Of a stretch of DNA of 64,000 nt, positions 11,806 to 59,573 are shown one piece after another (positions within the stretch are counted from its first letter, which is position 1; every line of letters begins with the position of its first letter). This stretch comes from Mobula hypostoma. Lineage: Eukaryota. Where the stretch lies: the NCBI RefSeq assembly GCF_963921235.1, contig NC_086097.1, positions 54,438,001 to 54,502,000 of the forward strand, written 5' to 3'. The notes beneath the pieces were generated by a model, which searched no databases, was not told the DNA's origin, and worked only from the letters and a program-made list of their open reading frames with translations. The translations under genes were made by a program, and so were the position numbers.

Positions 11806-12164
11806 ACTTGATTGTGGTACATGAGGTGTACATTGTCAGAATTCCCCCCCCCCACCCCATGTTAGGTGTATCAAAAACAGGGCTTAAAGGAAAAGGAAGG
11901 GGAAATTGAGGGTAATTTTTAAAAAATATACAACGTGACTGATATCTCGAACCAGTGGACTGTCAGAATCAGATAAATTCACTACATTTAAGAGACATTC
12001 AGAGAGATAACAATAGGCAGGGTATATAGAACGATGCAGATCTAAACATAGGAAATCAGTTATGTGTCAGTGGACAAAAAGGTTGCTGTTAATATGGTGA
12101 TCAATGGCAGTAGGTGCATAGGAACATCCATTCTGCTACTGCACCCCCTCCCACCTGTTGTCTA

Positions 12165-12322
12165 AGTTGCAGATCATCCTAAACTGGAAATGTATCACCA
12201 TTGTTCCATTGTTGCTGGCTGTCATTTCTGGAATTTCCTCCCTAGCAATGGTTCAGGAATGCACCAAGGAATGGGCAATAAGTGCTGCATTTGTCTAGAT
12301 CCAAATAGTAAATAAGAAAAAA
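12165..12322 (+). mobile_element. LINE 3' tail relic (family of 29860-31195)
   Basis: catcctaaactggaaatgtatc...atgggcaataagtgctg plus an A-rich end mirrors the reverse complement of 29860-30075. Confidence 0.5.
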
Positions 12323-12825
12323 CAATATTTGAAATATTGTTTCATTTCCTGCAAAGTACTTTGAGATATCTTCAGGTCATAAGTTTATATGAATACATCG
12401 AATTAACTGAATTCAACAGTTAAACTAGTCTTCCTTTCTGATTTGTGTGAGAGCTGGTTGATTCTGATGTAAAAGCATGGCACACTGGGGATGCTCAGCA
12501 GGTTTTTGGGATTGGAACATCATTAGCATTTCATAATTGGTGTATTCATAGATCTGAAGGGACACACTCCCCACACGCCACACAGTTGGTTAATTGGGAC
12601 ACCTCGACCAGTTTATTTTGGCCCAGTTAAGCACCTATCCCAATTAGCTGCTGCTTCATGGGAATAGTTAAAAAGCTGAAAAAAAGATAAACTGCCTTTT
12701 AATTGTAACAATTTATGTATTTAAATTAAATGCAGAACAAATTAGAACACTGCTAATACTACTACATTACTATAAAAATGTTAGTTCCTAATAATTATCA
12801 ACGGGAAAATTCATTCAGTGTACGC

Positions 12826-13805
12826 GAATACGAGGAAATCTGCAGATGCTGGAATTTCAAGCAACACACATAAAAATTGCTGGTGAACACAGCAGGCCAG
12901 GCAGCATCTCTAGGAAGAGGTACAGTCGACGTTTCGGACCCCTTTGTCCATTCGTCCCCCCCCATCCCTCCCCACTGATCTCCCTCCTGGCACTTATCCT
13001 TGTAAGTGGAACAAGTGCTACACATGCCCTTACACTTCCTCCCTCACTACCATTCAGGGCCCCAGACAGTCCTTCCAGGTGAGGTGACACTTCACCTGTG
13101 AGTCGGCTGGGGTGATATACTGTGTCCGGTGCTCCCGATGTGGCCTTCTATATATTGGCGAGACCCGACGCAGACTGGGAGATCGTTTCGCTGAACACCT
13201 ACGCTCTGTCCGCCAGAGAAAGCAGGATCTTCCAGTGGCCACACATTTTAATTCCACGTCCCATTCCCATTCTGATATGCCTATCCACGGCCTCCTCCAC
13301 TGTAAAGATGAAGCCACACTCAGGTTGGAGGAACAACACCTTATATTCCATCTGGGTAGCCTCCAACCTGATGGCATGAACATTGACTTCTCTAACTTCC
13401 GCTAATGCCCCACCTCCCCCTCATACCCCATCCGTTATTTATTTATATACACACATTCTTTTTCTCTCTCTCTCTCCTTTTTCTCCCTCTCTCCCCCTCA
13501 CTATACCCCTTGCCCATCCTCTGGGCTTCCCCCCCACCCCCTTTTCTTTCTCCCTGGGCCTCCTGTCCTATGAGCCTCTCATATCCCTTTTGCCAATCAA
13601 CTGTCCAGCTCTTGGCTCCATCCCTCCCCATCCTGTCTTCTCCTATCATTTTGGATCTCCCCCTCTCCCTCCCACTTCCAAATCTCTTACTAGCTCTTCT
13701 TTCAGTTAGTCCTGACGAAGGGTCTCGGCTCGAAACGCCGACTGTACCTCTTCCTAGAGATGCTGCCTGGCCTGCTGCGTTCACCAGCAACTTTTATGTG
13801 TGTTC
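12826..13805 (+). mobile_element. Penelope-like element (GIY-YIG endonuclease end plus pLTR) with an inverted 5' pLTR segment
   Basis: VIYCVRCSRCGLLYIGETRRRLGDRFAEH...LRLEEQHLIFHLGSLQPDGMNIDF (13112-13405); 12863-12936 is the reverse complement of 13731-13804; 10-bp TSD CAGTGTACGC at 12816-12825 and 13806-13815. Confidence 0.92.
13708..13743 (+). ncRNA. Minimal type I hammerhead ribozyme motif of a Penelope pLTR (cleavage triplet mutated)
   Basis: AGTC-CTGACGA-A-GGGT-CTCG-GCTC-GAAA-CGCC-GACT: stem I AGTC/GACT, core CUGANGA and GAAA, short stem II. The inverted copy (12921-12936) keeps the canonical GAAACGTC. Confidence 0.75.
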
Positions 13806-14503
13806 CAGTGTACGCTGTTGTGTTCCTTTGTTTGTAAATGAACAAAGTCAGCGCAGACACAGAGCACAGAAAATGGACTGCCTTCATACAATGCTTTTGA
13901 CTATTGTATCCTCCAAATCTTCACTTTCATTGTAACATTCAAGATGATTGTCGATCGTTGTTTGTATTTCATTACTTGTTGAAGTAGTGAGATCGTTTTG
14001 TTTTCACTCCTGGCTGTTTCTGGCATTTCCAAGCTTAAATGCTTGAAACTCCAGTGAGCAAAGCAGTTCCAGATTGTCTTGCTGCTTATTTCTCGCAAAC
14101 TAACAGTTTAAAAAATCATTGCTTTTTGAGCACAAACATGGGCAACTGGTGCCATTTAAAAACTGTTCTCTCTAAGCACAGTGTAGTGTTTAATAGCCAC
14201 ACAAATGCATGTGACTGACACTAGTTGGAAACTGGCAACTGCCTCCATTCCCAATTCTGTGGCACAGTGTCCCAAATAATTTATTTTTTAAATTTATTCA
14301 TCTTTCTTCTCTTCTAATATTATACATTTGTGAACTTGTCATGCTACTGTGACACTAATTTCCTTTGAGATCAATAAAGTATCTATCAATCTATAAATGA
14401 AGGAAACCTGGCTGTTTTCTTGATTAGTTTTTGTTCCTTAAGAGTTGTCCCAAATTAACAGCTGCTCCGATTAACCGATGGCTCAATTAACCGAAATTGA
14501 CTC

Positions 14504-14525
14504 TGTGTGTGTGTGTGTGTGTGTG
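14504..14525. repeat. (TG)11 microsatellite
   Basis: Read directly from the sequence. Confidence 0.95.
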
Positions 14526-14554
14526 AGATGTTTGTTTGTATATAACACATAATA

Positions 14555-15068
14555 TACTCAGTGGCCACTTTTTTAGGTAGACCTGTATACCTTCTTGTGA
14601 GTGCAAATATCTATTTATCCAATCAGGTAACAGCAACTCAATTGTTGTTCAAACCAAACTTTAGAAAGGAGAAGAAATGCAGAAATGTGATTTAAGTGAC
14701 TTTGACCATGGAATGATTGGTGCCAAACAGGGTGGTTTGAGTATGTCAGAAACTGCTGATCTCATGGGATTTTCATGCACACCCGTCTCTATAGTTTGGT
14801 GCAGAAACCAAATATCATCCAGTGAGCAGTAGCTCTGTGGGCAAAAATATCTTATTAATTAGAAAGGTCAGAGGAGAATAGCCAGGCTGGTTCAAGCTGG
14901 CAACAATTCAGATAACCATGCATTACAATAGGATGCAGAAAAGCATCTCTAAATGTACAACACGTCAGACCTTGAAGTGGATGAGCTACTGCAGCAGAAG
15001 ACCACAACGTGCACTCAGTGGCCTCCTTATGAGGTACAGGAGACTCCTGGTAAAGTGATCACTGAGTG
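14555..15068 (+). mobile_element. Tc1-derived non-autonomous DNA transposon
   Basis: TIRs (T)ACTCAGTGGCCACTTT and AAAGTGATCACTGAGTG, flanked by TA (14553-14554, 15069-15070); internal KCDLSDFDHGMI.GAKQGGLSMSETADLMGFS is a Tc1 transposase HTH relic. Confidence 0.88.
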
Positions 15069-15574
15069 TATATCCACCTCTTTTCCTCTCTTTCTCCCCC
15101 CCCCCCCCACTGTTCAGCAAGCTACATATTTTCAATGTTTTTTTATCTTTTTCAGCAATTCTGCAGATTTCCAGCATCATCAGTTTTTGTTTTGATTTTT
15201 CAATACTTGGTCTACTTGGATGTCACATAGTTTTTTTTTCTCTACAGATGCTCTCTGACTTTCAAACATACTACTTTACTGAAGCTTTCCAATAATTATG
15301 CTCATGGAATTTCACAGTTTCAGCCTTTGTATTTTTTCTCGCTTCTATCCTCATCCATTTCCTCCAGACAAGCTAGATGCCATTAATAAATCTTTGCACC
15401 TTGTCCAAGTTAAAACCAATATGTGATCTACCTTCTCTTGGTGCCCAACACATCACAGATGTTCTTTTTGTTCTACTTCTCCCCTTTCTCTACAATTTTA
15501 TTTATTCCTTTTGCTAAGTCCTTCTTCACAAGGAGGATCATGGACTCAAAATGTTAATTATCTTTCATTCTCTA

Positions 15575-15775
15575 TTTATTGATTGAGATGCAGTGTGGAA
15601 TAGGCCTTTTGAGCCACACTGCCCAGCAATGCCTTGATTTAACCCTAGCCTAATCACGGGACAATTTACAATGACCAATTAACCTACTAACAGGTACATT
15701 TCTGGACTCTTGAGAAGAAGTCCACATGGTTACAGGGAGAACATACGAACTCCTTACAGACATTGGCAGGATTAT
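15575..15775 (-). mobile_element. V-SINE (HE1-like) copy
   Basis: tttaaccctagcctaatcacgggacaatttacaatgaccaattaacc...acagggagaacatacgaactccttacagac; homologous to the copy at 2745. Confidence 0.7.
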
Positions 15776-16349
15776 GTCAATACTATATGATGTGCCAAGC
15801 ATTTCCAGGCCTTTTCTGTTGGTTTTCAATTTCAGACTCTGGCATCTGCTTGCTGTTTAATTTGTGCGAACAGAATGATGAGGAAACATTCTTAGTCGTG
15901 AAAGGTAACTTCTTAATGTCTTTCCATAATTAATGCCTGGCATGGATATTTGCGTCTTCCTAGATATACGTTCGTACATTATTTCACTTTATTTTTTCTG
16001 GTTATTGTTTTTTCCACCAGTAAATGCTACTTGGTGGAAACATGTCATTATGTTTCAGAGAGAGTTGATAAGGTTGTTGGCAGTTGGAGAAGATGGCTGT
16101 CCTTCACTATCAGCTTGTTTGTCTATTTCTCTTGATTAAATTACTAAGCAATATTGAAAATATTAATGATTGCACTTAGCTATTCTTTTCATGCACTGAT
16201 AATCAAGATTTTGGACACAAGCTGATACTATTTTGTCCTTGCTTCAATACAACTGCATTCAAGTTTGATTAAATATGCCTTCATGGTATGACAGAGCTGA
16301 TAACTGTTACTTTTGAAAAGATGAATTAGTTGCATAGAAAGAAAAAAAA

Positions 16350-18365: not shown

Positions 18366-21300
18366 TCCACAAGAATAGATTTTATTTCAGTTTGTGACAT
18401 CTCTGAGTTTTCCTTTTGTGTTTGAAATGAAATTATTAGTACTTAAGTTTTCTGTTTGGTTTAGCAACCTCCATGGCACTTTGCATTTAAACGTACATTT
18501 TTGAATATTTAGCTTGAACATCTCCAGAGAGGCCTTTGCATCTGATTAATTCAGTTGGAAAATCAAGTTTGTGAAAATTATCTAGTTTGTATTTTTCTGG
18601 AAGATAACCTTACAGAATTAATATTCTTTGAAAAATATGATTTCAATTTTCTTAAAATATTAGATATATACAAAATAGTTTGGTTGGATGGTACTTGTGC
18701 ACTTAAAATTTTCTTCATCCTGGGTTGTCGGGATGATATAGCTTGTGCAGTATCACACACCAACATGAGCGATTATTGGTCTCGTATTTTCTCACAGAAT
18801 TGAGTTCATTAGCCAACAGGAAAAGCATATGGCAAATTTAAGTAGGAAAGGCATCTCTTTTGCCTAGTCCCATTCTTGCTCAGTTTCATAATCCAACAGA
18901 AGTAGTTCCATTCCCTGATGTGTAGACTCTTAACATCTGTCCAAGTTATCAAGGCCATTTTTTATTTTTCCTGATAGACCTATCTGTAATTGTTAAAGGC
19001 ATATTTTGAATTTAATAGTTCTAATATTAGATGCTCAGTAGTGGCACTCTGTTATAGCTCAATCTGTTTGATACTGAACTATTTGGGAAACTTATTCAGT
19101 TACTGCTTAACTGGAAAATGGTCTTTTGTAATTTTTAAATAGTAGTGACCCCAATTAGAATGCATGCCATCCTTTCAGAAGGTAGTTTTATTGAATTATT
19201 TCTATTATTAGAAAGGAATAGTCACAGATATCTTGGCATTAAAGTGGAGTGAACTGGAGTGTTCCAGGGGAAAATAATTTTGATTTGAGTTTTTAACAGT
19301 TTTTAGGGTTAGAAATGAAGACTATTCCACTAAATTCAATTGATTTGCACAGATGCATAAACTTTGGCAAGATCTGAGCAAGTGACTGGTGGTCATGGAT
19401 ACGTGTTATTTTCCAAGCGGAACTGGAACAGATTGCAGAAACTCCTCAAGGGGCTGAGTGTCCCATCTTCTGACTGGTGACTCACTGGAGGAGAGGGCCC
19501 TTTGCCAGAGCACTGGGAGTTGATCTCCTGCCGTGTGCTTTGGCTACTTGGGTTCCACGGAGATTTTTTTGAGTATGAGGATCCCATAATGGCAAGAGAT
19601 CCAAGGAAGAGGAAAGATACCTGTCCCACTCTGACATGAGTGGGGGTTGTGGATTTCCAAATTGAGAGTTTAGAAATACCAGAATCTGGGAAGGTAGTTA
19701 GGAGTCAGCCAAATACTCTAATGCTGAGATTTGGACTTGTGGAGAGGAGAATATTGATGCATTTTTAAAGGATAAAGTAGGTTCCTTTTTCATGAAAAGA
19801 TACCACAGGGAAATGTCTGAGGGTTTCCCTGTCGGTCATCTGGAAAGATTAAGCTTCGCATGTCATGAATGCTCATGTGGCCTCGCCATGCACTGAGAAT
19901 CAATGAGTGATGTGGATTTTGCTAGAGGGTCTGCCTCCTGACTTAGTTTGGAATTCAGCAGGTCCTTTAGTAAATAGTGAACAGCACATGTTTTGCCACA
20001 AACTTGGGTAACTCGCGGGCATGTGCTCGCTTAGACACACTGACCTATCAGAGGGTGTTCTAATGGTAAATTTAAAATTGGCTGCTCTATGCACAACAGA
20101 TGTTGCTATTAATAGTTAATCTGCATTTAGAAGGATGGGAATGTTGGGTGTCCAGTCTTTATCTTTTGCTCTGAAAGTGTTTATACAGCATATGGTTTTT
20201 GAATGAACTAAACTGAAAAGAATGTGGCTAACCAGTGTCATTTGGGATCTTCAGAAATACTACGGAAACTCCACATTCTTTAGGCAAACTTCAGGCATGC
20301 CAGTACATTCCAGAGTCATGAGGTGTAATGAATTTTGGTACTGGTTACACTGATCAGTGCCTCATGAGGTTTAGGAAATGTATTCATTACATTCAACTAC
20401 ACAACAGTTCATTGTGGTAATGTTTTCCACTTATAGATGAAACACTTAAGCCAAGTATTATATAAAAAAAAACACAATTCCAGTTTCATTGACTTTCAAA
20501 AATAGTTAAAAGTGAATCAGTTTATCTAGAAAAGTTTGAAACAACAGGGTACAATTTTCACAGTTTGTGAATTTAAATTCCAAAATTTGTATTTGAATAC
20601 TTTTTAATACAATGGTGACTTTAGTTTATTAAGTAGGTTTTTGAAAAAATGTTACCAGTATACCTTTTTTCTGTGAAGACTTTATGGACATATAATTTTC
20701 ACGTCTTAAGTAATGTGGAAAGTGGTAACTACTTGGCAAATTCATTTTGGTTTGTTAAGCCACTTAGGATTCCTGAGCAGTATTCTGAAAATAGCAGCAA
20801 AGTTAACATATCCAGATATAGCCTCAGTGTTACATACAGTATATATATGGTATGAAATCCACTTTAATACATAGTAATCTGTATGTCTTCAGAATTCAAT
20901 GTGGCACAGGTAGGAAGTTGAACAATGCCTTTATTCACAAGTTATTTTCACATGTCAGTGTATAAACTATTCCATCCTGGTTTCTGCCTTCTCTGTGATG
21001 AGATGATTACATCCAAGTCAGAAGTATGTGAATTCAAGCTCCAGTCCAACATTTGAGCATGTAATTTAGTTTAATACTGTATATTTTAGTTTGAAACACT
21101 ATTTTAGTTCCTGTCATATACGCTACCTTCAAGTAATATCATGAACTTCATCTACCTTCTCAGCAAACAATACAGATAGAAAAGGACCAGGTTTATCAAG
21201 CCTACTTCAGTGGATTAACTAAAGCATTCTGATCAGACTGTTCTTATCCTGAGTAATCATTCCAGTATTTGAATGAGTCGGAACATTATCGGTAGAGGAA

Positions 21301-21459
21301 AAACACCATCTTGTAGGTATTTTCAGTTGAAAAATCATTGACTCTGCACAAAACAATAATCAGTTTAGTCAGTGCTTAATAGGTATCTTGATTTTTAGAG
21401 TTGATAAGCACCATTATATTCAAACTAGACAATGTAAGTCAATTTGGAGATTACTCTCT

Positions 21460-22260
21460 CGAAGTTCAAAGTAAATTTATTATCAAAGTACATATGTCAC
21501 ATACACAACCCTGAAATTCATTTTCTTGCAGGCATACTCGATAAATCCAAGAAACATAATAGAATCAATGAAAGAGCACATATAACAGGACAACAAACTA
21601 ATGCCAAAGACAACTGCAAATACAAAAGAAAAAAGAATAATAATTGATGATGGTTGCTGCTTTGCTGCGACAGTGCGCCGTGTAGATGTACACAGTGGTG
21701 GAGAGGATGTTACCTGTGATGGACCAAGCTGTATCCACTGCTCTTTACAGGATTTTCTGCTCAAGGACATTGGTGTTTCCATATCAATCCGTGATGCAAC
21801 CAGTCAATATAGTCTCCACCATATATCTATATAGAAGTTTGTCAAAGCTTTAGATGTCATGCCAAATCTTCACAAACTTCTAAGAAAATTGAGGTGTTGC
21901 AGTACTTTCTTCATAATTGCACTTGCGTGCTCGGCCCTGGACAGATCTTCTGAACTGCTAACACAAAGGAATTTAAAGTTATGCCCCACCTCTGATATGC
22001 TTGATGACGACAGACCTTCAGTTTCTTCCTCCTGTAGTTGATAATCCTTGGTCTTACTGACATTGAGTGAGAAGTTGTTGTTGTGGCACCGCTCTGGCAG
22101 ATTTTCAATCTCCCTCCTGTATGCTGATTGTCACCACCTTTGATTTGGCCAACAACAGTTAACTCACTTAAATACGGCATTGGAGCTATGCTTAGCCTCA
22201 CAGTCATAAGTATAAAAGTGGGTAGAGCAGGGAGCTAATTACACAGTCTTGTGGTGCCCT
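21460..22260 (-). mobile_element. Rex1/Babar-type LINE 3' fragment with internal deletions
   Basis: Tail aagttcaaagtaaatttattatc; TVVGQIKGGDN RT remnant on the minus strand. Confidence 0.75.
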
Positions 22261-22439
22261 TTTAGACTGGCTTGTAGATTGAAATTTGGGAGGTAAGCTA
22301 CATGAGGTTCATTGTTACAGAAAATGAGAGGCAGTGGGTGGTTGTTCAAAAGTAATCTGGTTCTATTCTATACATTTGTATCTCAAATTAGTATTTTTAC
22401 TTTTATTGAAGCATTGTGGCTGACATTTTAGTCTTCCAT

Positions 22440-23028
22440 GAGTGAGGGATCAGCAGTGGAACATCTTAGAGGATTTATCCTGAGCCCAACATATAGATGC
22501 AATCACAAAGAAGGCACACCAGCAACTTTACTTCATTAGGAGTTTGAGAAGATTTGATACGTCACCAAAGGCTCTTGCTAATTTCTACAGATGTACTATG
22601 AAGAGCATTCTGACTGGTTGCATCATCATCTGTTATGGAGACTCCAATGCACTACAGAGGGTTACAGAGTCAGCTAGCTTCATCATGGACGCAACCCTTC
22701 TTACCACCGAGGACCTTTTGAAGCAGTGATGCCTCAAGATGACGGCATTCATCATAAATAACCCTCACCACTAGCACCATGCACTCTTCTCATTACCATC
22801 AGGGAGCAAAAACAGGAGCCTGAAGATGCCTATTCATTGTTTTAGGAACAACTTCTTCCCCTCTGCCATCAGATTTCTGAGCAGTCCACATACACTACCT
22901 CACTATTCCTCTTTTGCATGATTATTTTATTTTTGTTGTAGCAGTAATTTTTTATGCATTGTATTGTAGCCACAAAACAACAAATTTCGCAACATATACC
23001 TGTTGATAATAAACCTGATTCTGATTAC
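22440..23028 (+). mobile_element. Rex1/Babar-type LINE 3' fragment
   Basis: LANFYRCTMKSILTGCIIICYG; tail aataaacctgattctgatt. Confidence 0.8.
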
Positions 23029-23733
23029 TGGGGTGAAAAATTAGGCTAGATGCGAACATAAAATTTTTCCACCTCCAAAGGTAGAAATGAAGCAAAACTA
23101 CATATAACTACACCCACAGAAACAATAACACAAAACAATGAAGAGGCCAAATGAGTGCCACAGCAACCTACATCAGTCATACTACCACATCAAATTGTTT
23201 CCTCATAAACTGTGTAAGGAAGATTCCAATGCATTTTTAAAAAAATTTTTAATGTTGTCCTGCTGACAACATAAAATCTTTGAAATGTAAGCAAGCTTTG
23301 GATGTTGAGAGAGATTCTATGCAATGACGATGAAGGTCTTTATACTTGTCCATTCTGAGGTACTCTGTACAGGGATTGGAGGCCTCTCTGTGTGTTTGTG
23401 GGGGGGGGGGTGATAAAAGGGTTTGTTTTGCTGTTGCTGCCTGTTGTATATTGCTTGTATGTTCTGCTGAATGTTGTGGGTATGCTATGATGGTGCCAAA
23501 ATAAGTGGCAACGGTTGCCAGTTGACCTCAACACATCAGATTGTGTTAGTTGTTACACAAATGACACATTTCACTGTATGTTTTGATGTACATGTGATTA
23601 ATAAATAAATCCTGATCAACATCCAAAAATCTAAAACAATCGAGTTTGTAATGAGTCCAGAATGGCAAGAAAATTCTAGTGCAACTTCTCCTAATCTCAT
23701 ATCCAAATTTAGAAAGTAATTGGAAACACTATC

Positions 23734-25400
23734 TATTATAGTTTGAAACTTCAAAATATTAAACTAATTCAAAGGAAGACGCAAGAGTCTGAAACTTGTG
23801 TCTAACTTTGTGTTTACATTGAGTGAGGTGTGCACATATCGTATGGTAGCCTCATAACGTATGCAATTCACTTATTTTTACATTTAGCTCGTAATTATTT
23901 AATCAAAGAATGCTTAATCAACAACATAGTTACAAGATTACTCAATATTACTGTAATGTTAAATGCACAACGCTCCTCCCTGCTTCACTATAGAGAATGC
24001 ATCTCAACTATATAGACAATATATTGTACAGTACAACTGCTATACAGACATAGTAAATTTGAGTTTGAAATTGTCCCATTCAGACTGAAAGATTTAATCA
24101 CTGTAGAGGCTTCTTTATTTTCCTGACAAGGGGAATCACTCTACAGGTGAGGCCTGTGGTTGTGAAAACCATCTCAGATCCTGGGGCCTTCTCTGTGGTA
24201 GTTCTAAGAGTTGATTCCTAGACTACAAGAAGAGCTTATGACACCTTTCTTCTCCTTCCTTTATCTTCTAGTTTGTGCATCTTGATTTTGGGTAGGTGCA
24301 TTTTGTTGACTGGAGTATTCCTTTATTCATCTTTGTATTGCTGCCTTTACAATCTGATCTCTCCTCTTTGTTTTTAGAGCCACAACATCATCTGATGAAT
24401 TCTCTTTTTTTTTGTATCTCAATTGACTTGTTTCTCTTAGGCCTTCCATTCATCCAGCTGGGCTTTGATCTCTGCATCTACTTTTACAAGCAACTTTTTA
24501 TCTCTGACTTGAGGTTCATGCAATAACCTCAATGCATGCAGAGTAGATTCTGGTTCTTTATACTTATAAAAGCCAAATGCTTGCAACTTTCCTGAAGCTC
24601 TTTGAACTCTCTTCTGGCTTAAAACCAAGTCACATTTTGCAAGTAACTCTGATTAACTTATCAGAAGCTGTCTCAGATATGTTGCCTACAAAAACTCTTG
24701 TAGTTGTACCGTTCCTTTTGTCACTTTCACAATTGCCCTGAGCAACATGGTCCTTCCTTCTCCAATATGCTTTTGAATCAAAGGCAAAGATTGGCACCAG
24801 CACCTGTTTGCCCTCTGGGCAATGGTTCATGGTGTACAGCATTGGGACAGTTGTGGCATCATTCAGTATCTATCTTGGTTTACTTTCAGTTGAAGAGGAT
24901 GTGGCATGCAAATAGTGGATTTGATCTGCAATCAAGTTGTAGTTGTCTCAGCCAATCACACCACCACAATGCTGGTTCTTGCTGTTTTTACCACCCACAG
25001 GCTCAAGGTGGCTTGTTGGATGTTTTATTTCACTGCCACAAATGTCATTCCCACAGGAGTTAACATTTTTCCAGTATAGGTTCTTAGTTGGATATCTGCA
25101 GGCTTCAGTTTAGGATCTTTGAAATGCCATTCAAATTAATTTTGATGAAATCAGCTAAACCAGTGTCCAATGCCATTTTAATTAATTTGTTGTTCACTTC
25201 TGGTGCAAGCCATGTTGTTGTCTAATGCAGACGTGCTGTTTTTGAAACAGCAACTTTATGACTTCATCTTTCCTGTGCAATCCATTTATTTTTGTCTGTT
25301 ATGTCCTACTTTATTGCATTTTCTACAAGATTCACCTTTAAATCTGCATTGGTCTGGTGTATGTGAGCCCCTATCAGATAGTAAGAATTTTTGCTGAATT
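23734..25400 (-). mobile_element. Decayed Ty3/Gypsy LTR retrotransposon (gag zinc knuckle, protease, start of RT, [RBM25 insert], end of pol, PPT, 3' LTR)
   Basis: On the minus strand: GSHTPDQCRFKGESCRKCNKVGH (CCHC knuckle, ~25300-25372); PEVNNKLIKMALDTG (aspartic protease, ~25160-25204); LKPADIQLRTYTG (~25070-25110); EPLPR (start of RT, ~24812-24830); KIKKPLQ*LNL (end of pol, ~24090-24122); purine tract AAGCAGGGAGGAG (23973-23985) followed by an AT-rich LTR-like segment ~23734-23972. Confidence 0.8.
24245..24803 (-). pseudogene. RBM25: Intronless RBM25 retro-fragment (RRM and flanks), frameshifted and containing stops
   Basis: Minus-strand frames give VLVP...RKDH...TTTRVFVGNISETASDKLIR / LVLSQKRVQRASGKLQAFGFYKYKEPESTLHALRLLHEPQVRDKKLLVKVDAEIKAQLDEWKA* / TKRRDQIVKAAI...KEYSSQQNAPTQ...RKEKK. 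This is colinear with vertebrate RBM25 (TTTVFVGNISEKASDMLIRQLLAKCGLVLSWKRVQGASGKLQAFGFCEYKEPESTLRALRLLHDLQIGEKKLLVKVDAKTKAQLDEWKA). No introns and no poly(A). Confidence 0.92.
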
Positions 25401-25404
25401 TCGA

Positions 25405-25910
25405 GCTCAAAGTTCAAAGAAAATTTATTGTCGAAGTATATCCATGTCATCATATACAGCCCTGAGATTCATTTTCTTGTTGGAATACTCAATAAATCTA
25501 TAGAATAATAACCATAACAGAAACAACAAAAGGTTGCACCAACTTGGGTGTTCAAACAGTGTGCAAAAGACAACAAACTGTGCAAATACAAAAATAAATA
25601 ATAATGAGTAAACAATAATTATCAATAATTATCAGGAACATGAGATGAAGACTCCTTGACCAATGAAATGAGTTCATTGGTTGTGGGAACGTTTCAATGA
25701 TGGGGCAAATGAAGTTGAGTGAAGTTATCCCCTTTGGTTCAAGAGGGTAGTAACTGTTCCTGAACCTGGTGGTGAGAGTCCTGAGGCTGCTGTACCTTCT
25801 TCCTGATGGCAGCAGCAAAAAGGGAGCATGTCCAGGGTGGTGGGGTTCCATAATGATGGATACTGCTTTCCTGTGACAGCATTTCATGTAGATGTTCAAG
25901 GATTTGAGCC
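25405..25910 (-). mobile_element. Rex-type LINE 3' end
   Basis: KAVSIIMEPHHPGHAPFLLLPSGRRYSSLRTLTTRFRNSYYP plus the standard tail. Confidence 0.85.
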
Positions 25911-25919
25911 ATTGATTAC

Positions 25920-26320
25920 ATTTCACACAAAATGCTGGAGGAACTCAGCAGGTCAGGCAATATCCATGGAAATGAACAAATAATCAGTATTGTGGACCAA
26001 GACCCCTCCTTTCTTCAGGACTAGGAAGTAAGTGGGAAAACGACAAAATAAAAAGGGGAAGGAGGATAGCTAGAAGGTGATGGGTGAAGCCAGTAGGATA
26101 GGAAAAGTAAAGGGCTAGAGAGGAAGGAATCTGATGGGAGAGGAGAATGGACCATAGGAGAAAGGAGAGGAGGAGACGACCCAGGGGAATGTGATAGGCG
26201 GATGAGAAGAGGTAGGATGCAAGACTGGGGGAAAGAAGAAGGGAGGGAAGAGGGAATTTTTTTTTGCCAAAAGAAATCTATGTTCATACCATCAGGTTGG
26301 CGGCTACCCAGACGGAGCAT
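25920..26320 (-). mobile_element. Penelope-like element 3' fragment
   Basis: LRLGSRQPDGMNIDF, a pyrimidine-rich UTR, and the pLTR motif cctgacctgctgagttcctccagcattttgtgtg on the minus strand. Confidence 0.8.
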
Positions 26321-27069
26321 TTATTATGTATTTTAGAGTTCACAAATAACATTGGACAAGCTTGCCATTAAGTATTGCAGCAGTGTTTATACAGGAAGTG
26401 GGATTTGTGCTTTATTTTGCAGGTTAATGCTTGATGACAGGTATCTAACTTTGAAGATGCATGTGGTGTATCTGTTCTGCTAATTTCTCATTTTTTCCAC
26501 AATAAAATTTCAGAGAAATTCTTAGTTTAGAAATGTTAGCTTTAGTTGTCAGTTGCTGTGAATTTTAATACGTTATTGTAACTGCCTTCAAATTATTTTT
26601 AGAATTAAATGTATTATTTTGTTCTGATAAAAGCTCAAGCTAGTGGCATGTTTTCACAAACAATATTGCATCATCATTTCAGGATGATCAACCAACCATG
26701 TATTGGAATAATTAAACCATGCAGTAAAAATGGGATGTAATAGTTTCAGCAATATGAATGGAGATGGGTGAGGTGTTCAGAATTAACCCAAGAGTAGACT
26801 TTAAGCTTTAGTGCAGCACCAGGTTATTTTATCAGTTTAACTTTGGATCCATTCTTTATTATTTAAGCACTGCCCCATCTGGATATCAGCAAATTAATTG
26901 CTAAATAATTAGATAAATACAGATGTAATAGTTTGAAAGTGAAATGAATGATTAGGTGTCATAGAGTAATTTTCCTGTAGCATGGAAGTAAGCCCTAAAG
27001 ATCATTGAATGCATGCCAACATAATGTACCCATTTACACTAATCCTGCACTAATCCGAGTCTTTCAACT

Positions 27070-27165
27070 AATTGGGGGTTTATATGGGAGGCACGGTTTG
27101 AGGGTTGGCACAACATTGTGGGCTGAAGGGGCTGTACTGTGCTGTACTATTTTATATGTTCTATG
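27070..27165 (+). mobile_element. CR1-type 3' tail
   Basis: ggcacaacattgtgggctgaaggggctgtactgtgctgtac...tatgttctatgtt. Confidence 0.65.
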
Positions 27166-27264
27166 TTTAATTCTTCTGACATTTCCATTTACTCACTTAA
27201 CTCCAAAGGTAAACTGCAGTCTACCTCACAAAGTTTATTATGTGTTTTGAAATCCACAAGTAAT

Positions 27265-27925
27265 AGATTAGATTAGATTATGAGGACACAGTCGTCTTTT
27301 ATTGTCATTAGTAATGCATGCATTAAGAAATGATACAATGTTCCTCCAGTGTGATACCACAGAAACACAAGACAGACCAAGACTGAAAAACTGACAAAAA
27401 CCACATAATTATAACATATAGTTACAACAGTGCAAGCAATACCGTAATTTGACAGAAGAATAGACCATGGGCGCAGTAAGAAAAAAGATTCAAAGTCTCT
27501 CGAAAGTCCCAACATCTCACGCAGACGGTAGAAGGAAGAAAACTCTCCCTGCCGTGAGCTTCCAGCGCTGCAAACTTGCCGATGCAGCATCCTGGAAGCA
27601 CCCGACCACAGTCCGACTCTCAGTCCGTCCGAAAACTTCGAGCCTCCAACCAGCCTTCCGACACCAAGCACCATCTCTGCCGAGCACCCAGCCCCAGCTG
27701 CCAGCAACAGGCAAAGCCGAGGATTTGGGGCCTTCCCCTCTGGAGATTCTCGATCGCACAGTAGCAGCGGCAGTGAACTGGGCATTTCAGAAATTTCTTC
27801 GGATGTTCCTCTGTGCTTCTCACGTCCATCTCCATCAAATCAGGATTGTGCACGGCCCCTATTTAACTAAATCATTTTACAGGAGAAGCCGCGTGCTGCG
27901 TTGCGCCACCATCTTCTCCTCCCAC
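27265..27925 (-). mobile_element. Young non-coding retroelement (~660 bp) with AAGATGGTGGCG head and (TCTAA)n tail
   Basis: CpG-rich; on the minus strand it starts gtgggaggagaagatggtggcg and ends aataaaagacgactgtgtcctcataatctaatctaatcta; no RT motifs. Confidence 0.65.
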
Positions 27926-28319
27926 TTTATTCAAGGTATATTTTCTTCCTTTTAAATTATCAAACCATTATCTTTGGTTCCTACAACAAACTATTCCCCA
28001 TCACTGATTCCTTCCCAACTCTGGCTGCTGTCTCAGGCTAAACAATTTCAGAATTGGAATCAGGTTTATTATTACTGATCTATATCATGAAATTTGTTTT
28101 GAGGCAACAATACAGTGCAATACATAGAAATACCACAAGTTATAATAAGAAATATTTAAAGAAGTAGAAGAAGAGAAAATTTGAATCTCTTGGAAGCAGG
28201 GACAATATACTTTTCTGTCTTTGCCACAGTTTTGGTCTGTCTGCTACTACCACCCTCATCTGCATTTGCATTGTTCCCTTGGTCTTCGATCTTCCCTAAA
28301 CGAGATCTCGCATTTTTTT

Positions 28320-28540
28320 GTTTAATTAGAGATACAGCATGCTAAACAGGCTGCTCAATAACACCCATGTAACCAATTAATCTATTTAGTGGGATGTAGG
28401 AGGAAATTGGAGCATCCGAAGGAAATCCGTGAGGTCACGGAAAGAACATACAAACTCCTGACAGACGACAATGGGGAATAAACCTGGGTCTCTGGTGCTG
28501 TGACAGTATTACGCTAACTGCTACACTACTGTGCTGTCTC
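28320..28540 (-). mobile_element. V-SINE (HE1-like) copy including the tRNA-like head
   Basis: gaggaaattggagcatccgaaggaaatcc...acaaactcctgacagac...tacgctaactgctacact. Confidence 0.7.
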
Positions 28541-28559
28541 TGCTTGTCTGTGCACTCAC

Positions 28560-28960
28560 CAGCTACTGTCCATCCATTGTGTTTATATTCACAGATTTAC
28601 ATTTCCTCATTTCAGTTTTAAGTTTTTTAATGCCTGTCTCTCCCTATCACTGACCAGCTTGAAACTTCCAAAAAGAATACATCCTCCGGCACTTAAATGT
28701 AATTCTTTCCCCTTTTCCTTTAACCCATTCATCCGATCGTTGCTAAAATATCTTAGGATTTCTCTGCCCAAGGTCTGGAATTCCATCTCAGTACAATTTT
28801 GTTTCACTATCTCTTGATCACCAGGTTAAGGTTAAGACTTGCCTCTTTGACAAAGCTTTCAGTATCTAGTATTTTGGTGTAGATTTTATTTTTATGTTAT
28901 TACACCTGTATAAGCAACCTTGATATTTTCCTGCATTAAACGCTATAAAACAATGTAATT
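28560..28960 (+). mobile_element. Old L2-like LINE 3' fragment
   Basis: PKVWNS-like coding remnant, ttaagacttgcctctttgacaaagcttt, and an attaaacgctataaaa tail. Confidence 0.5.
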
Positions 28961-29859
28961 ACTACAGATAAATTTGAAGTTGCCTATAATGGATTGAAAC
29001 CCCTTAGCTTTTGATTTTCAGCAGTGATATTTTGCTTTTAATATTAACAATAGGCTAATAAAGAATTAACTTGGCATTGTATGACTAATAACTACAGATG
29101 TGCCAGATGCTTTCTTGGACGATCATGCAGATCATGGCCTTTTAAGAAAAAAAGCTGGATGTCTGTCTTGGAAATGTACATGTTTTACCTTTTCTCTTGC
29201 TGAAATAGAATGGATAGAGATTGCCTTAGTCTTTTAGTGATAGAACTGGAATGGCCACATGGGGGTGGTCTTTTGCTTTGTTTAGCATTACACATTACGA
29301 TAGTTTTTCAAGATTTTGCTGTCAAATTTGGTAGTCTTATAAACTAATCATATTACATAATGTTGCGGTTGGACCCATTATTGGCTGATACCATGTCAAA
29401 TTGGCCACATTCTGGAGGAGGTGCCTGTATTGGGTGAAGGTTCAGTGAAAGGCAATTCAAAATAACATATTTAAAAGTAAATATAATGATATGAAGCTAT
29501 TAACAGAGTGAAGTACTAAATAAGCAGAATTTCAGTGTTGATTTTTCTTGTAATCTGTGCCTCCCTCTCCATGATCCTAAAGACATATTTTAGCTATACA
29601 TATTTAATCCTTCCAAGTTAAATTCTGGATATACAGAATTTTGCTTTTGCATGCAAAATTTAATTTTACTTTGAATTTGTTATGACTCAGCTTTCAGTTT
29701 TTTTTTGAACGACTGACTTCAAACATAAGCATAGCAATTTTACCAAGAAACAATTGAAAAATACCCAAGATTTTTTACTGATCTAGGCACCTTTGATTCT
29801 TGTAAGAACATGAAGAGCAGGTTACGCCATACCCATACGATTCCTTGACATTTCTTTTA

Positions 29860-31195
29860 TTTATTAATTTACTGGTTGTGGTTGTTGCCAGCTAAGCCAG
29901 CATTTATTGCCCATCCCTAGTTGCCCTTGAGAAGGTGGTGATGAGGTACCTTCTTGAACCATTGCAGTCCCTGAGGTGTAGGTACACCCACAATGCTGTT
30001 AGGAAGGGAATTCCATGATTTTTGACCCAGTGACAATGATGGAACGGTATTACGTTTCCAAGTCAGGATGGTGAGCAACTTGGAGGGGGATTTCCAAGTG
30101 ATGGTGTTCCCAGGTACCTGCTGTTCTCGTCCTTCTAGATGGTAGTGGTCGTAGGTCTGGAAGGTGCTGTCTTAGGAACTTTGTGTTATTGCAGTGCAAC
30201 TTGTAGATAGTACACACTGCTGCAACTGTTCGTCGATGGTGAAGGGATTGGATGTTTGTGGAAGGGGTACCAGTCAAGTGGGCTGCCTTGTACTAGATGG
30301 TGTCAAGCTTCTTGAGTGTTGATGGAGCTGCACTAATCCAGGCGAGTGGCAAGTAATCTATCACACTCCTGACCTGAGCCTTGTAGATGTTGGACAGGCT
30401 TTGGAGAGTGAGAAGGTGAGTTACACGCTGCAGGATACCTAGCCTTTGATCTGCTCTGGTAGCTACAGTGTTTATATGGCTAGTCCAGTTCAGTTTCCTG
30501 TCAATAGTAACCTCCAAGATGTTGATAGTAGGGGATTCAATAGTGGTGATGCCATTGAATCTTAAGGGACAATGGTTAGAGCCTCTCTTGTTGGAGATGG
30601 TCATTGCCTGGCATTTGCGTGGCTTGAATGTTACTTGTCAGCCGAAGCCTGGATATTGTCCAGGTCCTACTGCATTTGGGTATTTACTGCTTCACTATCT
30701 GAGGAGTCACGAATGATGTAGAACATTGTGCAGTCATTTGTGAATATCCCCAGTTCTGACCTTATGACAGAAGGAAGGTAATTTTTGAAGCAGCTGAAGG
30801 TGGTTGGTCCAAGGACACTTCCCTGAGGAACTCCAGTGATTCACTGAGGATGAGATAATTGACCCTCAACCACCACAACCAACTTCCTTTGTGTTAGGTA
30901 TGATTCCAACCAGAGGAGGATTTTTCCCTAATTCCTATTGACTCCATTTTACCTATAGCACCTTAATGCTGGGTTGATGCCAAGGGCTATCACTCTCACT
31001 TCACCTCTGGTATTTAGCTGCTTGGTCCATGTTTGGATGAAGGAGGAGATGAGGTCAGGAGCTGAGTGTCCTTGACAGAACCCAAACTAGGAACCCATAA
31101 GCAAGTTATTGCAGAGTAGGTGCTGCACAATAGCACTGTTGATGACCCCTTCCATTACTTTGATTGAGAGTAGGCTGAGGGGGTGGTAGTTGTTC
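29860..31195 (-). mobile_element. CR1/L2-group LINE, 3' RT region and tail
   Basis: INILEVTIDRKLNWTSHINTVATRADQRLGILQRV...IYKAQVRSVIDY; NIQSLHHRRTVAAVCTIYKLH; tail gggatgggcaataaatgctgg. Confidence 0.85.
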
Positions 31196-32977: not shown

Positions 32978-33368
32978 AGTCTGAGGTACTCACCTGCTTC
33001 AACCAGGCTTCAATTATACCGATACATAAGAAGAACATGGTAACCTGTCTCCAGTAGCATTTCCATCCACAGTGATGTGTTTTGAGAGGTTGGTGATGAA
33101 ACATCAACTCCTGCCTGAGAAGCGATTATGGATCTGTTCCAGTTTGCCTACCTGAACAATAGGTCCATAGCAGATGCCATCTCATTGGCTTTTCACTCAA
33201 TCCTGGAACATCTGGACAGCAAAGGTGCATACATCATGATGCCCTTTATCGACTACAGCTCTGCATTAAATACCATCATCCCCTCAAAACTAACCAATGA
33301 GCTTCAAGACCTTACCTCCTTGTGCAATTACATCTTCTATTTCTTCACTTGAAGACCCCAGACATTCT

Positions 33369-34162
33369 TTTTTTTTTATTTCAAAATATACTTTATTCAA
33401 AAATAAATATATACAATAAACCATTCAATAACTTTTCATCCTTTACATACGTTTGCATTATATACAGTACATATCCGCATTTATACCACATCATTTCATT
33501 GTTGAGGGGTATACTCCCCGCCCTCCGACCCCTCCCACTCCCACGGGTGGAGAAACCTATACTGTGGTCCTTCCCCACCGGGCCCTTGCGGTGGCTGCAC
33601 CAAGTTCCAGTGCGTCCCTCAGCACGTACTCCTGCAGTCGAGAATGTGCCAGTCGGCAGCATTCTCCCACGGACATCTCCATGTGCTGGTAGATCATCAA
33701 GTTACGGGCCGACCAAATAGCATCTTTCACCGAGTTGATGATCTGCCAGCAGCACCGGACGTTGGTCTCCGTGTGTGTCCCCGGGAACAGCCCGTAGATC
33801 AGAGAGTCCTCTGTTACGCAGCTGCTGGGGATAAACCGTGACACTAGCCCATCCATCCTCCTCCACACCCTCTTTGCGAACTGGCAGTGTGCAAAGAGGT
33901 GGGTCACAGACTCCTCCTCACTGCAGTCCTCCCGTGGGCAGTGGGGTGCGGAGACGACGTTCCGGGCGTACAGGAGGGCTCTGACTGGGAGGGCCCCTCT
34001 CACCGCCAGCCAGGCGAGGTCTTGGTGCCTGTTGGTTAGATCTGGCGATGAGGCATTTTGCCAGATGAACTGGACAGTCTGCTCCGGGAACCACCCCACT
34101 GTGTCCATCACGTCCTTCTCCTGCAGTGCCTGCAGGACACTACGTGCCGACCACTGCCTGAT
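33369..34162 (-). mobile_element. Young 5'-truncated Tx1/L1-clade LINE (C-terminal zf-RVT region of ORF2)
   Basis: Open frame ...LAWLAVRGALPVR...CPREDCSEEESVTHLFAHC...; poly(A) seen as a T run at the left end; perfect 15-bp TSD GACCCCAGACATTCT at 33354-33368 and 34163-34177; CpG-rich. Confidence 0.92.
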
Positions 34163-35299
34163 GACCCCAGACATTCTGATTGGCAACAGCATCTCCTCAC
34201 AATCTTCATCAGCACAGGTGCACCACAAAGCTATGTGCTTAGTCCCCTGTTCTACTCACTTTACACTTGTGAGTATGTAGTTAAGCATAACACCAATGCT
34301 GTATTCAAATTTGCATGTAACACCACTGTCATAGGCCAAATCAAAGTTAGCGATGGATCAGCATGTAGGAGGAAGATTGAAAATCTGCTAAGTGGTGTCA
34401 TGACAACAACCTCTTAATGTCTGCAGGACCAAGAAATTAATTATTAACTTTGGAAGAAAGAAACTGGAGGTCCTTGTGCCAGTCCTCATCAGAAGATCAA
34501 AGGTGGAGAGGGTCAGTAATTTTAAATTCCTTGGTGTTGTTATTTCGGAGGACATGTCCTGTGCCCAGCACTTAAGTGTAATTACAAAGAAAGCACGGCA
34601 GCGTTTCTACTTTCTTCAGAGTTGGTGAAGGTTCAACCAGACATCACAGGTAAAGCCCTTCCCACCATTTTGAACATCTATACTAAACATTGTCACAGGA
34701 AAGCAGCATCCATCATCAGGAACCCCACCATCCAGGACATGCTCTCTTCTTGCTACAAACATCAGGTAGAAGGTACAGGAGCCTCAGGACCCACTCTGCC
34801 ACGTTCAGGAACAGTTATTACCTCTCAACTATCAGGCTCTTGAATCAAAGGGGATACCTTCACTCAACTTCGCTTGCCCATCATTGAAAAGTTCCCACAA
34901 CCAATAGACTCACTTTCAAGGGCTCTTCATCTGATGTTCTCGATATTTATTGCCTATTTATTTATTATGGTTACTTTCTTTTTGTATTTGCACAATTTGT
35001 TGACTTTTGGACACTGGTTGAAGGTCCAAGTTGGTGTAGCCTTTCATTGATTCTATTATGGACTTATTGGGTATGCCCACAATAAAATGAATCTCAGGGT
35101 TGTATATGATGACATGTATGTACTTCGATAATAAGGTAATAATTGAGGATTTGCTTGCGAACAGAAAACAGTTGTGTCATATATGGATTGTGTCAAAATA
35201 AATGTGTCATGTACGGATTGGGAGGCATTGATTCATGGGATGCCATGCGTTGGTGCTGGAGCCCGAGGTATCTATATCCAGTATCAGTGATTTAGACCA

Positions 35300-36570
35300 A
35301 GAGATAATGTAATAAATACAGACCCGCTTAATGTACCTGTGTAGAAAATGGAGACAGTAACTAAACAGGTAGCTGATGGAATGTATTATTGAAAAATGGG
35401 AGGTCATCTACCTGAGCAGAAAAGAATATTTTTCAATATATTTTTAGTGGGAAGTTAAGAAACGATGGTAGTCAGAAGCATGCTCGTCCTTACATATAAA
35501 ATGCTGAAAGTTGATGTGTAAGTATAATAAGCACAGAGGAAGAAAATTGATAAATAAGCCTTTATTTGAAGAGGGTTAGAGTGTGAGCACTTTGTAACTT
35601 CCTACTTGCTGTACTTGCATGTTAATTTGCAGCAAGAATAGGAATGTCTTTCTGAAAGCTCTTCTGAACTGCATATGAAATATTGTGGAGAGATCCATCT
35701 CCCTGTCTAATGTAAACAATGGATTGCAGACTTTTTATATCAGGGAAATTTAAGCACATTGGTCTTATAGCCGTTTTGAGTTTTGAAGATTAAGAAATAT
35801 CTCATTGAAATGTGGAAAATACTCATTGAGCTTTATCGAATAGGTGAGATTATTTCTCCTGGCTGAGGTCTCTGAAATCGAAGTTCACAATATAAGGAAA
35901 AAGAGAAAAGTTACTTCACTCAGTAGGTAGCAAATATTTGAAATACTCAACCTAAGGAGCTATTTATGAGGTGTACAGTTAAGAACATTCTGACTGGTTG
36001 CATCACAGCCTGGTATGGAGCCATTAGTGCACAGGGTCGATGGTAAGAGACTGCAGAGTGTTTAGATTCGGCCAGCTTTATCACAGGCACAACCATCCTC
36101 TCTATTGAGTACATCTTCAAAAGGCAATGCCTCAAGAAGATGGCATCCATCATTATAATCCTAGCCACTTGTACATGCTCTTTTCATATTACCGCCATCA
36201 GGGCTGAGCAGAGGTACAAGAGCCTGAAGACCCACATTTCTTTTTATTTTGAGAACAGCTTCCCCTCCGCCATCAGATTTCTGAATGGCCCATGAACCTC
36301 ATTATTCATCTTTTGCACTTTTCATTTATTTTGTTACTTACAGTAGTTATTACGTTTAGCATTAGGCTGCTGCTGCGAAGCAAGACACTTCATAAAATAT
36401 CTCAATGCTGATAAACCTGATTCTGTTTCTGAAATCAATGTAAGTTAGATATTAAAGGAATCAGGGTTGGTACAAAAAATTGACAATAAGGTAAGCCATG
36501 ATCTTGCTGACTCAGAAAGTAGGCGCAAGGTGCCAGATAGCCAGCTCCTACTTTAATTTCTTGGGTTAGT
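35300..36570 (+). mobile_element. Old CR1 3' relic interrupted by a Rex 3' fragment (~35950-36430)
   Basis: Remnants of WQMEYNxxKCEVIH and MLAFIxRGLE; the Rex part shows NILTGCITAWYG and an ataaacctgattctg tail. Confidence 0.6.
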
Positions 36571-37189
36571 ATTCCTCTTTGCAGAACAAACCATTCAGAT
36601 TAAGAATCTATGATCCACTGAGTCCAGTCCCAGCATACTCTCTTCAAGATAGAGGTCAAAATTGAATAGAATACTTCAACTGAGGTCTCATCAATGTGTC
36701 ATACCCATTATCCATATTTTTGCACTACAACTCTCTTGAATTAGGCCAATCAAACAGCTTTCTGAGTCTTATGAACAGCACACTAAAATTAATTTGTACA
36801 TCATTTGATAGTTTCTTTGTATTTGGAAAGTACAATTTTTTACCAATCTTTCCACTATTTTGCATAACTTCGTATTTTCCCACATTTTATACTTGGTATA
36901 CAGATCAGTGGCTACCAGCCTACAACAGAATCTGCACCAATAGATATAATTTGTAAATTGACGTGACCATAAGATATTCTCGTGTGTCAACCAAATGCAA
37001 GCTAATGGAACTGTATTAACTACCCTGCATCAAAACAGGCATCAGACATCTTCAGCTGTTAATTGGCATGATTCTGACAGCAGTCAAGGGAAGTTACAGA
37101 GTAGACATTTTAGCAGATTAAGCATGGTCATTGACATATTAACTCTGTCTGTCAATAATAGGGATATTTGTGTACTTAAATCATCAGTC

Positions 37190-47901: not shown

Positions 47902-48417
47902 CATTCATTAATCAATGGCATCAAGAATCTAAGGACAAAGTAATGATGCTTTTGCTGACACATCTTCCATTACTGAAGCCAGGAAACATTGATGCAAAAA
48001 AAGAGTACATGAAGCTTTTGCCTAAAATTTTGGCTCATTCTATTGAGAACAATCAGCACATAGAAGAAAGTAGGCAGCTCTTATCTTATGCTTTGATCCA
48101 TCCTGCGACCTCATTGGAGGACCGAAATGCACTAGCAATGTGGCTCAACCATTTAGAGGATCGCACCTCTGGTTATGGAAGCCAGAGTAGGGGACGCCAT
48201 GATTCAGTGGATTTTGGGCAAACTCTTTATTATCACCAAAGACAGAACTCTGATGACAAGCTCAATGGTTGGCAGAGTTTACGTGATTCTGGAATTTGTG
48301 TGTCTACTTCTAACTGGCCAGACAAGAACCAGGCTTGTGAGAATGGGCATTTGCCTCTTTATTCTTCTACTTCTGTACCTGCAACTATCAACACTATTGG
48401 GACTAGCACAACCACAA
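47902..48417 (+). CDS. SAMD4A: SAMD4A (Smaug homolog 1) internal coding exon, N-terminal Smaug-similarity region (equivalent to human exon 3)
   Basis: Translates [87 protein letters not shown]...[11 protein letters not shown], near-identical to vertebrate SAMD4A as recalled. Acceptor tgtttttgcAG ends at 47901; donor GTaagt starts at 48418; 516 nt, phase 1-1. Confidence 0.96.
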
Positions 48418-48659
48418 GTAAGTACAATATACTTTGAAATGTAATGCTTTTTCACAGTTTAAAGAAACTGCAATACTGTCAGACAAGTCATAATTTTTGG
48501 GTTCATTTGTTTCTAACAGAAAAATGATACTAAGATCTGCAGAGTGATTATATCAAATGCTGACTTTCCTTTGTGACGAGAAAAGGGAATCACATTTTTG
48601 CAAGTGACAGGATGGGAAGAGGTATAGTCAAGATAGCTGTGAGAGTCAGATTTATAAAC

Positions 48660-50192: not shown

Positions 50193-50199
50193 CAGTAGA

Positions 50200-59309: not shown

Positions 59310-59573
59310 TTCTCTCAGGCCAGACACACCACAGTCCTCTGAAGCGTTCAGTATCTCTTACCCCACCAATCAATGTGCCAAATCAGCCTCTAGGTCATGG
59401 ATGGATGTCCCATGAAGACCTGCGAGCAAGAGGACCTCAGTGTATCCCGTCAGACCATGCTCCTCTCTCCCCACAGAGCAGTGTTGCTTCTTCTGGTAGC
59501 GGCGGGAGTGAACATCTTGAAGATCAAGCAGTAACACGAAACACATTCCAAGAGGAGGGCAGTGGCATGAAAG
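59310..59573 (+). CDS. SAMD4A: SAMD4A next coding exon, immediately before the SAM domain (equivalent to human exon 4)
   Basis: (I)[87 protein letters not shown]. Acceptor gttttctAG ends at 59309; donor GTaggt starts at 59574; 264 nt. Joins the previous exon in frame (A|TT = Ile). Confidence 0.96.

Follow-up and report, generated by a model that had tools for sequence, protein, structure and literature searches.

The minus strand of the window (the whole stretch of 64,000 nt analyzed here) contains a dead Gypsy-type LTR element whose reverse transcriptase (RT), RNase H, and integrase are replaced by a fragment of the RBM25 gene. The element runs from approximately position 25400 to position 23734. 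We consider it likely that the fragment was captured from RBM25 mRNA by template switching, and that the resulting hybrid then spread as a non-autonomous LTR family. The overall reading of the initial annotation, which had described an element-gene-element layout with an insert of spliced origin and a lost pol core, holds up.

Gypsy-derived parts and genomic position

Two remnants of a Gypsy-type gag-pol are recognizable in the 5' part of the element. The first is a gag zinc knuckle (25289..25369, minus strand), supported by a profile match (iE 4e-6) and by relatives that carry zf-CCHC at the same place. The second is an aspartic protease interrupted by stops and frameshifts (24925..25216, minus strand), which was delineated by protein search and by a frameshift-aware alignment to protein P0128. 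A search of region 25393-24959 against 1.84 billion representative proteins yielded 54 matches at E<=0.001 (best 4e-14), and none of the 54 Gypsy-type matches carries RBM25. The named Gypsy-type matches of the protease region come from fishes, mussels, and one moth. The long Gypsy-type relatives have the Gypsy domain order, from the zinc knuckle through the aspartic protease, RT, and RNase H to integrase; the element has the zinc knuckle followed by the protease in common with these protease-RT-RNase H-integrase proteins. The CCHC knuckle and protease of the initial annotation are therefore confirmed by both profile match and alignments between 25369 and 24925 of the minus strand. The last Gypsy-derived stretch 5' of the insert is the protease-to-RT linker (24858..24920, minus strand), which is similar to the corresponding linkers of P0128 and P0160 but not to RBM25. 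A word-based search with the protease piece passed none of 12 candidates, and a six-frame Pfam scan of the element gave nothing useful.

Searches of the 64 kb with 68 proteins and with a profile of 34 detected no further remnant of gag, RT, or integrase. Remnants of RT, RNase H, and integrase are absent from the 64-kb window, and the element is not autonomous. This copy has lost its 5' half; neither a 5' LTR nor any other second LTR, a primer-binding site, or a target-site duplication of the element was found within the window. Another repeat (25406-25944, minus strand) adjoins the broken gag end at 25406. It has at least six relatives in the window and no Pfam match, and it resembles the 3' end of a Rex1/Babar-type LINE. 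There may be a connection between this repeat and the missing 5' half. No Rfam match was obtained in the region 20000-30000, and no relevant tandem repeat was found.

The 3' part of the element comprises a tail, a purine tract, and an LTR-like repeat. The tail (24090..24245, minus strand) is probably the end of pol. Its alignments to the C-termini of three Gypsy relatives scored 27, 27, and 30, within the range of shuffled sequences (maxima 31, 31, and 34), and an end motif derived from three proteins gave a weak match, ranking 27th among 127,924 positions and best within the expected stretch. These values do not sustain the firmer assignment made in the initial annotation, which had taken the tail for the extreme C-terminus of pol. 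The polypurine tract (23973..23984, minus strand; 11 purines of 12) and the 239-nt 3' LTR-like repeat (23734..23972, minus strand), both delineated from the sequence and both anticipated by the same annotation, are present. The repeat ends in CG and TA, which differ from TG and CA by a single transition each, and has no second copy in the window. It is a high-copy sequence with high depth up to its edge near 23734 in four public DNA runs; the edge falls in bin 23692-23755, and the adjoining bin has zero depth in three of the four runs. Just outside the LTR, the piece 23555-23611 is the end of another very abundant repeat and the most repeated of the pieces compared, with a summed depth of 115,000 in run X1.

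The element likely lies antisense within a long intron of SAMD4A (Smaug homolog 1). An internal exon of this gene was located on the plus strand (47902..48417; E 3e-48 to PDB 8oik_A residues 92-179), with AG and GT borders, and it begins mid-protein after an acceptor. A further plus-strand exon (59310..59573), located by motif matching and presumed to be SAMD4A-like, also has AG and GT borders and has no Pfam match. Motifs of the upstream exon were not found within the window; the antisense intronic position proposed earlier is thus a likely one, deduced from the plus-strand exons. Nothing suggests a role of the element at SAMD4A. LINE-type copies were observed at 40321-42195, 48654-50193, 8893-11804, and 51298-51940, one of them with a stop-free frame of 625 codons (RVT_1, E 6e-31). 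The region 33560-34255 (minus strand) contains a 232-codon frame with a zf-RVT match (E 1e-10) and represents an L1/Tx1-like LINE end.

The RBM25 insert and its joints

The insert is an intron-free coding fragment of RBM25, 612 nt long (24246..24857, minus strand), with four stops and four frameshifts, and its alignment places the shark residue in 150 of 202 codons. For the frame 24652-24437, 272 of 307 candidates matched at E<=0.001, the best being a sevengill-shark protein (84%), and of the 120 matches listed, the named ones correspond to RBM25 or to unnamed RRM proteins. The sevengill-shark RBM25 isoform X2 (P0121) was aligned to 24842-24246 with 146 of 197 residues identical, again with four stops and four frameshifts, and the longer RBM25 isoform P0122 extended the match to 24857. 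The RRM domain (24479..24695, minus strand), mapped through this alignment from the Pfam RRM_1 match on residues 72-140 of P0122, contains one frameshift near 24647; the RRM piece alone falls below the Pfam cut-off. The insert is truncated on both sides and ends inside a coding exon, with no mRNA 3' end; poly(A) is absent, the longest A run being 9 nt and internal. The alignment and the A-run check bear out an intronless, co-oriented RBM25 segment that spans the whole RRM without poly(A), as first annotated, and the RBM25 match ends at 24246, next to the 3' switch previously placed at approximately 24245. The insert size had been underestimated (approximately 560 nt, compared with the 612 nt of 24857-24246). 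No RBM25 relative was found in viral contigs, and the scanned part of the metagenome contigs contains one RBM25 locus, an ordinary exon-intron gene. Shark RBM25 also has look-alikes in the ESM Atlas, and those listed form no cluster with protease or gag families.

The insert has a spliced form. Exon borders were taken from the genomic locus of RBM25 in another vertebrate (L001) and are presumably conserved in the host. In L001, the exon starting after NG is preceded by an acceptor site and by no less than 128 nt of intron, and a donor site lies two codons after KEKK. The window passes the NG/D boundary without an intron, and the insert ends two codons before the donor position. At the NG point, 6 of 103 RBM25 proteins depart from the usual sequence. 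Moreover, the insert contains an alternatively spliced RBM25 segment (24804..24848, minus strand), which alignments to the shark isoforms identify as the short splice form of isoform X2. Isoforms X1 and X2 belong to one shark locus and differ by four residues (12 nt); the window has the X2 joint, without the 12 nt of X1, and 8 of 8 residues agree. Among 127 RBM25 proteins examined, 72 could be placed at this site and 55 could not, and the segment is present in P0001, P0121, and P0122 and absent from the other 69 placeable proteins. It is located just before the RRM region and comprises 16 or 20 residues; two of its carriers are named from sevengill shark, and one is an unnamed member of the same cluster. 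No published mention of an alternative RBM25 segment was found among the papers listed in our literature search. The insert is in this sense a fossil of an old RBM25 splice form.

The 5' joint consists of four codons, ATTV (24846..24857, minus strand), that match RBM25 exactly and are shared in the same frame, with two to three of four residues, by the two closest Gypsy relatives. The window reads STESKPR*ILND/ATTV/PMLYT across the joint, RBM25 reads MGLMAP/ATTV/SMLYT, and the Gypsy relatives read ELKRVLQS/AADV/FQDG (P0128) and LEKVLDC/AATV/FQPG (P0160). Thus, the left side is Gypsy, the right side is RBM25, and the middle four codons suit both, with the frame continuous. At the protein level, the look-alike was observed in two of seven placeable Gypsy relatives, including the best-scoring one, and not in the other five. 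Since it stands in the same frame in the Gypsy relatives and in RBM25, the capture was in frame with Gag-protease. A weak search for predicted proteins that span this joint retained none of 63 candidates at E<=0.01. The joint corresponds to residue ~410 of 1324 in the full-length relative P0159, and with a tail of approximately 50 codons this position implies that ~2.5 kb of pol is missing, in agreement with the replacement of the pol core described in the initial annotation.

That annotation had set the 5' switch at ~24803, approximately 54 nt away from the true switch at 24857-24846, and because of this misplacement it missed both the alternative segment and the in-frame look-alike. The residues EPLPR near 24820, which it had read as the start of RT, belong to another frame of the RBM25 segment. 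This candidate was rejected on the basis of P0122, which has ordinary RBM25 sequence on both sides of the segment; no residue of the RT domain is left.

These features are consistent with two template switches, a likely route as judged from the sequence of the 5' joint, the one joint compared with Gypsy relatives and this at the protein level. During reverse transcription in a virus-like particle, the reverse transcriptase would have left the element RNA for a co-packaged RBM25 mRNA and then returned, dropping the pol core. The hybrid would have kept the purine tract and the LTR and, presumably, the signals for packaging and priming, and it could have been copied by RT and integrase supplied in trans by an intact parent family. 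Its spread as a non-autonomous family in the host, presumably a cartilaginous fish, would account for the high repetition of the RBM25 piece, with most repeated pieces residing within such elements and RBM25 being a passenger rather than a driver of the spread.

Alternatively, a LINE-made RBM25 retrocopy may have been inserted into a Gypsy element, with later deletions that removed the pol core and the ends of the retrocopy before the trimmed element spread. LINE-type elements are common in the window, as indicated by RVT_1 matches. Repair by short homology can also produce look-alike joints. At least two deletions are needed for this course of events, taking the poly(A), both mRNA ends, and ~2.5 kb of pol, and the hallmarks of LINE-made processed pseudogenes (mRNA 3' end, poly(A), and an own target-site duplication) are not seen in the insert. 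The 5' look-alike and the cuts on both sides fit template switching, as far as its features are described in the consulted parts of the study of LTR-mediated retrocopies (PMC5131818). Accordingly, we regard the LINE origin as quite unlikely.

The least probable explanation, and an extremely unlikely one, is an assembly chimera or a chance arrangement in which an RBM25 piece came to lie between two Gypsy remnants of unrelated origin. Such an arrangement would agree with the absence of the 5' half and with flanks whose relatedness is not directly evident. However, contigs of run X1 bridge the joints with 0 differences (24665-24952 and 23924-24284), although X1 may be the source sample; the 3' joint is bridged in two other organisms (X5, 5 differences in 295; X9, 1 in 183); and the reading frame continues across the 5' joint, with a look-alike common to both parents.

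Repetition and age of the family

The window or part of it is present in at least 20 public runs from 7 studies, and the contigs of 4 of the 24 listed runs were compared with the window at 80% likeness. Summed depth is not a copy number and was used for the order of magnitude only. In run X1, contigs identical to the window locus, with a depth of ~7, bridge both joints, X1 being possibly the source sample. At single RRM sites of the same run, at least 120-125 contigs differ from the window, with a ceiling of 128 on the count, and the summed depth reaches 9,000-16,000, compared with 33,000-40,000 for the protease and 1,700-22,000 for the LTR. The repetition pattern in X5, another organism, is like that in X1. 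As an order of magnitude from depth, the copies of the RBM25 piece number roughly from hundreds to low thousands. The amplification guessed in the initial annotation is therefore visible in public DNA runs as a high repetition of the RBM25 piece.

The repeated DNA is RBM25-derived, and the differences are attributable to the decay of the window copy itself, as follows from a codon comparison with shark RBM25. The contig records list 40 of 412 differing places, 28 of them in the insert; with two places in stop codons left out, 24 codons were compared. In most other contigs, the shark RBM25 residue is gained in 14 of these codons and lost in none, whereas 4 differences are silent and 6 are neither. 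Many contigs also have another length than the window at two breaks of the protease, near 24921 and 24981, which shows that these breaks are not family-wide.

There are hints that the parts of the element are joined in other copies as well. Single contigs from such copies connect the RBM25 end with the tail (24095-24250) and the protease region with the LTR (23780-25091). None of the divergent contigs listed spans the 5' joint with 31 or more letters to either side, record 6 extending past it by 19. The summed depth near the joints is lower, amounting to 168-719 at 24140-24267 and 1,230-1,458 at 24716-24843, and these dips may reflect many RBM25 pieces that have other joints or are too divergent there. 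The depth at both joints, 10- to 90-fold under the RRM peak, would also agree with a mixed origin of the repeated RBM25 DNA, in which a Gypsy-RBM25 family of modest size is accompanied by numerous pseudogene pieces of RBM25 spread by other routes (LINE retrocopies and tandem or segmental copies). Two observations make this alternative very unlikely. First, the alternative segment is covered by 110 differing contigs at 24845 (depth 4,236), only 12 nt inside the insert from the 5' joint. Second, the window copy has several indels near both joints, which lower the number of contigs that can be aligned there at 80% likeness.

Record 9 of run X13 (24265-24564), with a depth of 69 and 84% likeness to the RBM25 piece, continues for ~150 unlike letters past the 3' end of that piece. 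It may represent mRNA of the host RBM25 gene or else a family member whose tail is different; the run is tentatively taken for RNA.

The divergent pieces listed differ from the window by 15-20%, the limit of the comparison being 80% likeness, whereas contigs from two other organisms that span the 3' joint are nearly identical to it, with 5 of 295 differences in X5 and 1 of 183 in X9. The window copy of the element is probably common to two related species. The contrast between the divergence of the pieces and the near identity of the 3'-joint contigs indicates that the spread is much older than the species splits. Sharks mutate slowly, according to the available part of the source (PMC10587355), in which the rate is given per generation. 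Taken together with the divergence relative to the species splits, this slow mutation suggests that the spread is probably tens of millions of years old or more, an estimate of age rather than a derived date. On the sense strand of 23500-25410, G-to-A differences outnumber C-to-T differences in X1 (53 and 36), an excess that is not significant (p 0.09). The same direction was observed in all four runs, for which the same window copy served as the reference.

A more far-reaching and rather unlikely proposal concerns the role of the captured piece. The founding element may have encoded an in-frame Gag-protease-RBM25(RRM) fusion, whose RNA-binding domain or RNA helped an element without pol to rival its helper family and to reach about a thousand or more copies in the cartilaginous-fish lineage. 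An in-frame joint arises by itself with a one-in-three chance, so the frame does not show that a fusion protein mattered. If the fusion reading were true, a piece of a host gene would have been used by a retrotransposon for its own spread, and the mRNA of the essential gene RBM25 would be exposed to small RNAs aimed at the element.

Relation to known gene captures

With template-switch capture as the preferred reading, the mechanism is one already known, and it is the scale that looks unusual, being above that of the LTR cases compared. In the accessible parts of the sources compared, animal LTR captures reach at most about ten copies, whereas the fragment described here, from the gene of a conserved splicing factor, apparently occupies hundreds or thousands of sites in one vertebrate genome. 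Two questions could be addressed with this one family. One is whether captured host sequence favors the spread of an element, given the frame shared with Gag-protease across the 5' joint; the other is whether a donor gene is also affected when a large family carrying its sequence is silenced. In practical terms, the annotation of RBM25 and the mapping of reads in these genomes will be confounded by such copies. No published report of a Gypsy-RBM25 family was found in a literature search, the reach of which stopped short of many subscription papers and the repeat databases.

The closest parallel is provided by the LTR-mediated retrocopies of flies, mosquito, zebrafish, chicken, and mammals (Tan et al., 2016, Genome Res, PMC5131818), which have few secondary copies in the consulted parts of that study. 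As in those retrocopies, the insert comprises a partial spliced mRNA that is truncated at both ends, takes the place of part of the internal ORF, lacks poly(A), and lies on the same strand. In this respect, the element seems to work like an LTR-mediated retrocopy. The short similarity reported at the joints of the published cases may have its counterpart in the four-codon look-alike at the 5' joint, observed at the protein level in two of seven relatives (PMC5131818, consulted parts). Secondary spread as a non-autonomous element is likewise described there and may correspond to the high repetition found here, for which shared joints are hinted at by single contigs and by the depth at 24845. 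The scale differs, with one to few sites in the consulted cases and roughly hundreds to low thousands here, and paired LTRs, a feature of the retrocopies in PMC5131818 as far as consulted, are not seen in the present copy. The species set in those parts of the study includes no cartilaginous fish, and a term search of 9 of its 10 supplementary files found no RBM25.

Many LTR captures are known in plants, according to the parts of a review consulted (PMC13317346). Among them, maize Bs1 (PMC5131818, PMC13317346, consulted parts) likewise has spliced pieces of host genes in an LTR element, and its copies have common switch points. Unlike the element described here, which has one donor and is a broken copy, Bs1 combines three donor genes, exists in one to five copies, and is now an expressed chimeric gene in these accounts.

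In vertebrates, CrocERV29 (KIT-ligand) and CrocERV31 (nectin3) are old LTR elements that captured host mRNA and spread across related species (PMC4299795, consulted parts). They are retroviral rather than Gypsy elements, number 9 and 6 copies, respectively, and retain both pol and intact captured ORFs under purifying selection, whereas pol is lost and the captured piece is partial in the present element (PMC4299795, consulted parts). A housekeeping gene in hundreds of dead copies is also found in the fungus Pseudocercospora, where histone H3 is carried by a hAT element (PMC6710886, consulted parts); this carrier is a fungal DNA transposon, in contrast to the RNA-level LTR capture proposed for RBM25.
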